Below are positions 57,114 through 58,134 of a stretch of DNA of 64,000 nt, in pieces (position 1 is the stretch's first letter; each line of letters begins with the position of its first letter). The notes under the pieces were generated by a model. It was not told the origin of the DNA, did no database searches, and worked only from the letters and a program-made list of their open reading frames with translations. The stretch is from a phage, in assembly GCA_019338205.1 (NCBI GenBank), contig GCA_019338205.1_4761.1; one strand, 5' to 3'. Made by a program: the position numbers and the translations under genes.

Positions 57114-57142
57114 TTGACTTTCTGGTGATAGGGCTATATTAT
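57114..57142 (+). promoter_or_regulatory. sigma70-like promoter (TTGACT-17-TATTAT)
   Basis: 35 nt upstream of ATG 57177. Confidence 0.45.
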
Positions 57143-57176
57143 GGAATCAGAAAGTTAAGCCAAACAGGAGAAATTA

Positions 57177-57767
57177 ATGTTAAAAGTTCTAAAAGCGATA
57201 GTATTGAGTCTGTCACTAGCCGTTGGTGCTACACACGCATCGACTAGCGCACCGATCAAAAAAGCGCCGATAGACAACTTTACAGCACACCAACTAGATA
57301 ATTTACATTTCGCCTATCAATACGGCGAGCAATTCGAGAAAAGCGGTAAGTTGAAAAAGTACCATCCGAATATTCGCTATAACGGAAAGGGTTTAGGTCA
57401 CATCCTGGCGGGTATCGCATGGCAAGAATCAAGCGCGGGTGCAAACTTAGCACCAAAGAAAAATCATCATGCTTATGGATTATTTCAAAATTACCTTAAA
57501 ACGGTGAAAGCGAAAAATGCAAAGCGCGGTGTTAAAATGAGTGATCGCCAGACTATCAACTTTATCATGAATCGCGAGGTTTCTGCATTCTACGCGATGG
57601 ATGAGTTAGCATACTGGCTGGATGTTCGAAACGGTAATATCCGACTCGCGCTAGCTTCTTACAATGCAGGGTGGAACTATAAAGCCGGGTTAGGTTATGC
57701 TGATGACGTACTAAAAAAGGCTAACCATCTAAAGAGTAAAGGCATTCTTAAGACTAAACGCTATTGA
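57177..57767 (+). CDS. secreted lytic transglycosylase-like protein (SLT domain)
   Basis: 196 aa; signal peptide MLKVLKAIVLSLSLAVGATHAS; SLT motifs GIAWQESSAG and AYGLFQNY. Confidence 0.55.
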   Translation: MLKVLKAIVLSLSLAVGATHASTSAPIKKAPIDNFTAHQLDNLHFAYQYGEQFEKSGKLKKYHPNIRYNGKGLGHILAGIAWQESSAGANLAPKKNHHAYGLFQNYLKTVKAKNAKRGVKMSDRQTINFIMNREVSAFYAMDELAYWLDVRNGNIRLALASYNAGWNYKAGLGYADDVLKKANHLKSKGILKTKRY

Positions 57768-57774
57768 GGAATAT

Positions 57775-58134
57775 ATGAAAAAGTTGACAATAATTGCTAT
57801 GATTGCTATGATGTTCTCGGCTGGTGCGCTTGCTAGTAATGAGCGCCCTTATCCAAAGTTTGAATACAAAGGATTTGAGATCAACAAAAAGATCATTAAA
57901 ACTTTCTGTGATGATGATAACATGTGTAGTGATTTTATCGCGCTCGAACTTGATGAAGCATACAAACAAGGTCGAGACGAAAAACGAAAAAATCGAGCAT
58001 GGGATCTGAGTATTGCCAGCTTTGCTAAAACAAAACGCAACCTGTGTGATACTGCCCCTGATAAGCAATTATGCTTTGCTTATCGCGACACACTGTTAAG
58101 CCGTTTTATGGCTGGGTTGTCTTCCCGTGACTAA
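57775..58134 (+). CDS. secreted Cys-containing small protein (119 aa)
   Basis: Signal peptide MKKLTIIAMIAMMFSAGALA; four Cys; loose resemblance to T4 RI (C..CSDF). Confidence 0.4.
   Translation: MKKLTIIAMIAMMFSAGALASNERPYPKFEYKGFEINKKIIKTFCDDDNMCSDFIALELDEAYKQGRDEKRKNRAWDLSIASFAKTKRNLCDTAPDKQLCFAYRDTLLSRFMAGLSSRD

Follow-up and report, generated by a model that had tools for sequence, protein, structure and literature searches.

In phage T4, the small genes vs.1 and vs lie side by side in the order regB-vs.1-vs-tk.4-tk.3-tk.2-tk.1-tk-rI.1-rI. The product of the first (Vs.1; NP_049725, PHROG 600) is recorded as a 'conserved hypothetical protein', and its similarity to the SLT domain has been in print since 2003–2006: all six vs.1 orthologues then known were reported to match that domain marginally, which backed earlier PSI-BLAST matches for T4 vs.1 (Nolan et al. 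2006, PMC1524935). The second gene specifies Vs (NP_049724; Pfam PF26829, ValRS_modifier; PHROG 1256), and a T4 factor binding the host valyl-tRNA synthetase (ValRS) was described in the 1970s by Muller and Marchin, as cited in PMC8076793. Here we describe the corresponding gene pair in a 64,000 nucleotide (nt) stretch of phage DNA (GenBank assembly GCA_019338205.1, contig GCA_019338205.1_4761.1; the window in what follows), where it occupies positions 57177 to 58134, and we argue that the two products probably form a periplasmic cell-wall module.

A 2.1 kb stretch of the window is 98–99% identical (megablast) to 58 Krischvirus genomes, RB49, JSE, Phi1 and GEC-3S among them. In the matching genomes the genes are annotated as regB, vs.1, vs ('valyl-tRNA synthetase modifier') and tk.4, with RB49, JSE and Phi1 using the names vs.1 and vs, and the gene order of the window agrees with that of T4. 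These identities, the profile matches given below and the common gene order identify the two open reading frames (ORFs) as the vs.1/vs pair of a T4-like coliphage, and they are almost certainly the RB49-group orthologues of T4 vs.1 and vs. As a gene call this is ordinary, since the pair is already known and annotated in RB49-like phages. What is new here is the range of the Vs family, its near-constant signal-peptide-like N-terminus and invariant four cysteines, the position of vs right after vs.1 at all loci sampled, and a compact endolysin-vs.1-vs-X-Y-rI block in some uncultured relatives (X and Y are described below). These features sit uneasily with current usage, in which Vs, a protein that matters conditionally to T4 in minimal medium, is read via an old cytoplasmic function, yet belongs to a family that looks exported, disulfide-bonded and tied to a secreted wall enzyme.

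Vs.1, a predicted secreted transglycosylase

A first-pass annotation of the window, made from the sequence alone, had proposed a secreted lytic-transglycosylase-like protein followed by a secreted, cysteine-rich partner. Both ORFs exist exactly as it called them (Table 1). The Vs.1 precursor begins MLKVLKAIVLSLSLAVGATHA/STS (the slash marks the predicted cleavage site), with two lysines, a 12-residue hydrophobic core and small residues at -3 and -1 (THA/ST). Signal peptides were called by a rule that asks for a basic n-region, a hydrophobic h-region and small residues at -3/-1; the Vs.1 and Vs precursors each show 1–2 basic residues and a hydrophobic core of at least 12 residues. Conservation in the family lends support to the calls, in that the rule is passed by at least 93 of 120 Vs.1 homologues, and most of the others have long n-regions or shortened starts. 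The predicted mature protein (175 amino acids (aa), 19.8 kDa, isoelectric point 9.9) is a bare catalytic domain.

The two motifs noted in the first pass, AWQESS (residues 81–86) and GLFQ (101–104), are joined by a third, SYNAG (161–165). Profile searches gave a match to Pfam SLT (PF01464) above the cut-off (25.8 bits against 21.3, E 8.1e-6; T4 Vs.1 scores 25.1 bits) and to phrog_600 at 1e-59; NCBIfam and PADLOC searches returned no match for either Vs.1 or Vs. Across 11 diverse phage homologues, drawn from six Straboviridae lineages, a Kuttervirus, a Felixounavirus and an Angelvirus, residues E84, G101, Q104, N105 and S161-Y162-N163-x-G165 are invariant. The catalytic glutamate is likewise invariant, and the serine after it nearly so, in 77 homologues; among 120 family members, E followed by S or T is present in 119 and YNxG in 118. 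Relatives of Vs.1 were detected by tblastn in 2034 phage records, so these are real conserved genes and not chance ORFs. The window protein is 98.5–100% identical to Vs.1 of RB49 and ELT3 and 47–49% identical to that of T4, an orthologue with full-length similarity, the same position between regB and vs, the same type of N-terminus and the same catalytic motifs; 13 residues that follow its signal peptide are lacking in the T4 protein.

An AlphaFold2 model of mature Vs.1 has a predicted local distance difference test score (pLDDT) of 91.4, and the top 15 Foldseek matches in the PDB are all lytic transglycosylases (MltD, Slt, Slt70, LtgA, Cj0843; probability 0.93–1.0), with T7 gp16 in 16th place. 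In common with Slt70, Slt and MltD (GH23, PF01464), Vs.1 has the E-S, G-L-(M/F)-Q and (A/S)-Y-N-x-G motifs and a lysozyme-like alpha fold, but it lacks their superhelical U/L domains, LysM domains and lipid anchor. Against PDB sequences, the profile of the Vs.1 family has one significant match, EtgA (E 2.2e-5, with the catalytic glutamate and YNAG aligned), the specialised transglycosylase of the type III secretion system of enteropathogenic Escherichia coli. Like the EtgA/IagB/VirB1-type enzymes (PDB 8urn, 4xp8), Vs.1 is a small, single-domain SLT protein and is predicted to be exported by Sec, and it resembles such 'specialised' secreted transglycosylases more than the large housekeeping Slt70. 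The EtgA-type systems nevertheless differ from the phage locus, where no secretion-system genes are present and where Vs is unrelated to EscI; EtgA, in turn, lacks the N-terminal helix and the insertion of Vs.1. EtgA is controlled by its small partner EscI, which activates rather than inhibits it. Taking motifs, fold and N-terminus together, Vs.1 is likely to be an active transglycosylase of the periplasm.

An insertion was seen in all 13 Vs-linked Vs.1 proteins, which have 18–28 residues between an AYxxG motif and the segment ending in the catalytic E-S, compared to 10–13 in relatives that lack Vs, with the exception of Aeromonas phage 31. It adds 8–18 residues before the catalytic helix (window residues 51–78, about 57327–57410) and is a lower-confidence hairpin in the AlphaFold2 model. 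It could be a docking site, but this is a lead only, since phylogeny confounds the pattern and Aeromonas phage 31 goes against it.

Vs, a four-cysteine protein of T4-like phages

The partner gene codes for a protein with the signal-peptide layout MKKLTIIAMIAMMFSAGALA/SNE (ALA/SN at the predicted cleavage site) and exactly four cysteines (Cys45, 51, 91 and 100), as the first pass had proposed. It matches phrog_1256 over its full length (1.8e-33), and PF26829 is a precomputed match on close homologues. The predicted mature protein is 99 aa and 11.6 kDa (11.0 kDa for T4 Vs). T4 Vs, whose N-terminus is MTKILVLCIGLISFSASASA/DTS, is an orthologue by position and profile, with the four cysteines aligned and a C-terminal G-L-S-x-R motif in common, but the two proteins are merely 28–29% identical and the window protein carries a 10-residue insertion after the signal peptide. 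Binding to ValRS and its modification have been described biochemically for T4 only.

When 1.84 billion representative proteins were searched exhaustively with HMMER, only 21 clusters came up, of which 20 hold short proteins of 85–134 aa. The only long protein (P0194, 585 aa) was dismissed as a spurious match to a low-complexity repeat. By this search, Vs proteins occur in T4-like phages only. The signal-peptide rule is passed by 55 of 58 homologues, and the remaining three look like starts mis-called inside the signal peptide. In phage CC31, Vs (L013 2414–2740) has a lipoprotein signal, MKKLFVLLVVFALSGC, with the lipobox LSGC, instead of a plain signal peptide. All four cysteines are invariant in 56 homologues, which in so small a protein fits an oxidising compartment. 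The AlphaFold2 model (pLDDT 80) has four helices, and Vs is probably an 11–12 kDa four-helix protein stapled by two disulfides. In the GenBank record of phage Berthold, the annotators had independently assigned a 'putative periplasmic secretion signal' to Vs.1, Vs, X, Y and RI. On these grounds a periplasmic location for Vs is likely. Our literature search found no paper on the export of Vs or on a link between Vs and Vs.1.

The label 'ValRS modifier' is in conflict with this predicted location, because of the signal-peptide-like N-terminus, the lipobox variant, the four invariant cysteines and the secreted products of flanking genes. Other small phage proteins were compared with Vs. The antiholin RI (Pfam PF24205) is also small, with an N-terminal export signal and conserved cysteines, and is encoded in the same neighborhood, and the first pass had suggested that the partner might be an RI-like regulator. 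This did not hold up: alignment of the Vs family with the window RI gave an hhalign probability of 0.15%, Vs has no Pfam Antiholin match, and the genuine rI is a separate gene (Table 1). Homology to Spackle was also rejected (hhalign probability 2.5%), and Spackle was not among the fold matches of Vs. No sequence or fold similarity was found between Vs and the known lysozyme or transglycosylase inhibitors Ivy, MliC/PliC, PliG and the immunity proteins of type VI secretion systems.

Linkage of the two genes and the role of the pair

In nine out of nine Straboviridae lineages sampled (the window phage, T4, JD18, CC31, Merlin, Acj133, Acj61, Berthold and PSTCR6), vs comes directly after vs.1, either overlapping it or at most 8 nt apart, and vs also directly follows vs.1 in four metagenomic contigs. 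A pattern scan for Vs in viral contigs gave four loci, mainly duplicates of phages already sampled. Among the loci examined, vs was never seen without vs.1, whereas Vs.1-like genes without vs occur in Kuttervirus SFP10, Felixounavirus REP12, Angelvirus PX29, Aeromonas phages 31 and 65-like, a jumbo-phage contig and a plasmid. In PX29 and REP12, the Vs.1-like gene adjoins spanin genes. The jumbo-phage assignment is probable and concerns a 215 kb contig (L022) of a 'Campylobacter coli' assembly, on which the Vs.1-like SLT gene is 1.4 kb from a PhiKZ-type chimallin gene; the element taken as a plasmid is a 258 kb contig with topoisomerase, helicase and IcmW (Dot/Icm type IV secretion) genes. Aeromonas phage 31 (L025 3501–5293) has regB followed by a vs.1 with a long, T4-type insertion but no vs, and between its vs.1 and macrodomain genes are two unrelated ORFs of 75 and 146 aa, the latter lipoprotein-like. 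In the window, the Shine-Dalgarno sequence of vs lies over the stop codon of vs.1, which makes translational coupling of the two genes probable.

The linkage extends to other genes for envelope proteins. In most lineages besides T4 and Krischvirus, vs is directly followed by a third ORF for a predicted secreted protein, here called X, of 120–146 aa, with a cleavage site ending in A/WE or A/WY and two cysteines, one of them conserved; a hidden Markov model search found no X in the window or in T4, and X has no Pfam match. Acinetobacter phages and related contigs also carry Y, a membrane-anchored ORF of about 100 aa, before rI. Linkage of vs.1/vs to rI is seen in many genomes and is contiguous in the Acinetobacter phages. 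In the metagenomic loci L018–L020 these genes form a compact block, T4-type lysozyme-vs.1-vs-X-Y-rI, with overlapping stops and starts, and L026 has the same order in a looser form, with three small ORFs between lysozyme and vs.1 and a macrodomain gene between X and Y (uncultured T4-like blocks at L018 2998–5360, L020 3007–5306 and L026 2014–5904). The corresponding region takes up several kb in T4 and the window, and this block may represent its ancestral arrangement; the large-scale order endolysin...vs.1-vs...rI holds in the window, T4, L018–L020 and L026. The lysis link raised in the first pass is thus plausible as regards gene position, with vs.1-vs between endolysin and rI, directly so in some relatives, and it fails as regards an RI-like partner.

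The reading we favor is that vs.1 and vs form a tightly linked, early two-gene module, both products of which would be exported by Sec to the periplasm. Vs.1 would act there as a single-domain SLT/GH23 lytic transglycosylase of about 20 kDa with an intact catalytic glutamate, Vs would bind it and restrain, activate or target it, and the joint target of the two would be the sacculus, in the interval from early infection to lysis, as part of the conserved endolysin...vs.1-vs...rI envelope and lysis neighborhood. Taken as a whole, a periplasmic cell-wall module is a probable interpretation. That the two proteins are functionally coupled is slightly favored by the data, and a physical partnership between them is on balance the better supposition.

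Fitness data for the T4 orthologues, as distinct from the genes of the window phage, come from the HIDEN-SEQ transposon study (bioRxiv 10.1101/2025.11.20.689424), in which vs and vs.1 were both classed as non-essential and whose authors describe the biological role of the ValRS modification as unknown. In the LB competition control of that study, mean insertion counts were 26.6 for vs and 22.6 for vs.1, compared with 179 for regB, 290 for tk.4, 265 for vs.4 and 652 for vs.3; insertions in the pair thus had 7–29 times fewer reads than those in flanking genes, and the reference library agrees. The similar depletion in LB indicates a similar cost when either gene is disrupted. When M9-glucose was compared with LB in the same study, vs was the strongest dropout (log2 fold change -2.19, adjusted p reported as 0), while vs.1 showed a smaller change (-0.87, p 0.0055, adjusted 0.155). 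These values fit equally well with the two genes sharing a pathway, with polar effects of vs.1 insertions on vs, or with a vs defect that is partly relieved when vs.1 is lost as well.

Several points weigh against a periplasmic module. The Foldseek scores of Vs.1 are modest (E 0.015–0.2, TM 0.44–0.54), and fold searches with the Vs model turned up no informative structural neighbor. The two genes may be neighbors through synteny alone, in a region that a single phage family inherits vertically; regB and tk.4, which are functionally unrelated, are also usually adjacent. In the transposon data, an effect of losing vs.1 itself is not distinguished from polarity on vs. Finally, the function assigned to Vs, binding of ValRS (cited in PMC8076793 and the HIDEN-SEQ preprint), is cytoplasmic, and it accounts at least equally well for a phenotype that depends on nutrients. 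Vs could accordingly be the tau factor that binds the host synthetase in the cytoplasm, with its N-terminus unused for export or with its action taking place before or without export; the adjacency to vs.1 would then be historical synteny, and Vs.1 would act alone. Mutations in vs alter T4 plating on valS(ts) relA hosts, which would point to an in vivo connection between vs and valS. The synthetase-modifier name is universal in databases, the ValRS-binding factor of T4 is in the literature cited above, and the impairment of T4 vs mutants is selective for minimal medium, a condition in which the supply of amino acids matters. Set against this are the signal-peptide-like N-termini of all but three of the Vs homologues, the lipobox of one lineage, the invariant cysteines and the predicted secretion of the neighboring products Vs.1, X, Y and RI. 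In addition, His-tagged full-length T4 Vs expressed in the cytoplasm went into inclusion bodies (PMC8076793), and the 1986 EMBL sequence record names the vs ORF just 'ORF 60.9'. Overall, we regard this classical reading as unlikely but keep it in consideration.

If both proteins are periplasmic, the nature of the partnership can be read in other ways. Spackle (sp) is a small, Sec-exported, helical early protein of T4 that binds a phage muralytic enzyme, the gp5 lysozyme, in the periplasm, and Vs might similarly be a dedicated inhibitor, or an immunity-like protein of the kind found in type VI secretion systems, that holds Vs.1 in check until lysis. The occurrence of Vs only with Vs.1, while Vs.1 occurs without Vs, the apparent translational coupling, the extra 8–18 residues as a possible docking site, and the greater cost in M9 of losing vs than of vs.1 insertions, as an unrestrained enzyme predicts, would all suit an inhibitor. 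A pure toxin and antidote pair, in contrast, predicts something other than the equal depletion of vs.1 and vs in LB; Aeromonas phage 31 has the long insertion and no Vs, Vs has no similarity to Spackle, and the activation of EtgA by EscI also counts against inhibition. The two cases further differ in the origin of the enzyme: superinfecting virions bring in the target of Spackle, and Vs.1 is produced by the cell that also makes Vs. Such a dedicated inhibitor is, in our estimate, quite unlikely. The position of vs.1 between endolysin and rI, the spanin genes beside its relatives in PX29 and REP12, and the function of its closest solved relative, EtgA, in making space for a trans-envelope machine, would also be consistent with an auxiliary lysis enzyme that weakens the sacculus in advance, helps to remove it or opens gaps for spanin complexes at the close of infection, with Vs as an accessory. 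This we rate as very unlikely, as vs.1 belongs to a transcription unit of the early type, behind a sigma-70-like promoter, and is non-essential in T4, while the holin, endolysin and spanin genes behave as required in the same HIDEN-SEQ screen. Highly improbable, lastly, is a role in superinfection exclusion or lysis-inhibition signaling, for example by processing the wall at secondary injection sites or by generating the signal for RI. Both proteins are predicted to be periplasmic and early and are linked to rI in many genomes, but this is pure guilt by association, and no r-type phenotype of either gene is recorded in the literature examined. Existing assignments in T4 also count against such a role, since imm and sp account there for exclusion and for resistance to lysis from without, and rI, rIII and t for lysis inhibition.

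A periplasmic module also permits a bolder and more tentative proposal, to which we give rather less than even weight: that the 'ValRS modifier' family (T4 Vs, PF26829, PHROG 1256) is really the periplasmic, disulfide-bonded partner of Vs.1, and the pair a remnant of an ancestral endolysin-vs.1-vs-X-Y-rI cassette of T4-like phages. If so, the minimal-medium fitness defect of T4 vs would be a cell-wall phenotype, and the 50-year-old link to ValRS would belong to another gene, reflect mixing of periplasm and cytoplasm in extracts, or be a moonlighting second activity. Experiments on this classic T4 gene would be redirected towards the envelope, and gp5 and Spackle would be joined by a second phage-encoded pairing of a periplasmic muralytic enzyme with a small partner protein.

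Expression signals and neighboring genes

The features of the region are listed in Table 1. A consensus scan recovered the sigma70-like promoter candidate that the first pass had called before vs.1. The scan overall showed no enrichment (15 sites found, 12.3 expected), and we credit this site because of its intergenic position, in the sole sizeable intergenic gap (between regB and vs.1, 57092–57176, 85 nt), and because the equivalent site in phage GEC-3S is annotated as a promoter with -35 and -10 elements. T4 differs in that vs.1 abuts regB. The early expression proposed for the pair stands in so far as the transcription unit is of the early type with a sigma-70-like promoter, from which the timing itself is deduced. 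The best promoter-like match of the region is at 57784–57812 on the plus strand (TTGACA, 17 nt, TATGAT with a TG extension, 11/12), within the start of the vs coding sequence, and could be a chance match or an internal promoter for tk.4.

Table 1. Coordinates of features of the vs.1/vs region in the window, and of gene X in related loci.
Feature	Coordinates	Strand	Basis and remarks
ORF of 599 aa with T4-lysozyme-like domain, consistent with gp5	39974–41773	-	Domain match
M15 peptidase endolysin	53539–53928	+	Pfam Peptidase_M15_4, 4.4e-12; 3.2 kb upstream of the pair
regB endoribonuclease	56669–57091	+	Pfam REGB_T4, 2.6e-48; directly upstream of vs.1 as in T4; start per GEC-3S annotation
Putative sigma-70-like promoter, TTGACT-17-TATTAT	57114–57142	+	Consensus scan, 10/12 matches
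Shine-Dalgarno sequence of vs.1, AGGAG	57166–57170	+	6 nt before ATG; read from sequence
vs.1 orthologue, 196-aa precursor	57177–57767	+	ATG start; predicted signal peptide 57177–57239, mature 57240–57764
Catalytic Glu84-Ser85 codons of vs.1	57426–57431	+	Homologue alignment; E-S motif of family-1 lytic transglycosylases
Shine-Dalgarno sequence of vs, GAGGA	57766–57770	+	Overlaps vs.1 stop codon (57765–57767); read from sequence
vs orthologue, 119-aa precursor	57775–58134	+	ATG start; 'valyl-tRNA synthetase modifier' family, Pfam PF26829, phrog_1256; predicted signal peptide 57775–57834
tk.4 macrodomain protein	58150–58605	+	Directly downstream of vs; Pfam Macro 1.3e-6, phrog_335 1e-61; T4 AdfM orthologue
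rI antiholin (lysis-inhibition sensor)	59954–60256	+	Pfam Antiholin 3e-23, phrog_1246; 1.8 kb downstream of the pair
X, locus L012	2740–3132		
X, locus L013	2737–3156		
X, locus L014	2842–3222		
X, loci L015/L016	2830–3255		
X, locus L017	2725–3165		
X, locus L018	4327–4740		
X, locus L020	4309–4716		

The GGAG within the vs.1 Shine-Dalgarno sequence (57167–57170) is the cleavage motif of the RegB endoribonuclease, which is encoded just upstream. Control of vs.1 by RegB through this motif was abandoned as a general feature, because GGAG is absent from the ribosome-binding site of T4 vs.1. On the other side of the pair, the T4 homologue of tk.4 has been renamed AdfM, an anti-DarTG2 macrodomain protein (bioRxiv 10.1101/2025.11.20.689424).

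Vs.1 is distinct from both of the other predicted wall-degrading proteins in Table 1, the M15 endolysin and the gp5-like ORF, in line with the first-pass annotation. The M15 peptidase gene stands on the flank that in T4 and several relatives holds the e lysozyme gene, and looks like a non-orthologous endolysin replacement amid conserved large-scale synteny. Three small consecutive ORFs on the plus strand upstream of regB (55835–56029, 56011–56271 and 56272–56664), the last of which matches phrog_6261 (function not assigned), look like paralogues, with a common motif of the type Y-x-F-T-P ... G-Y-I-K-D-D-x-G-Y ... G-C-S-H-L ... W.

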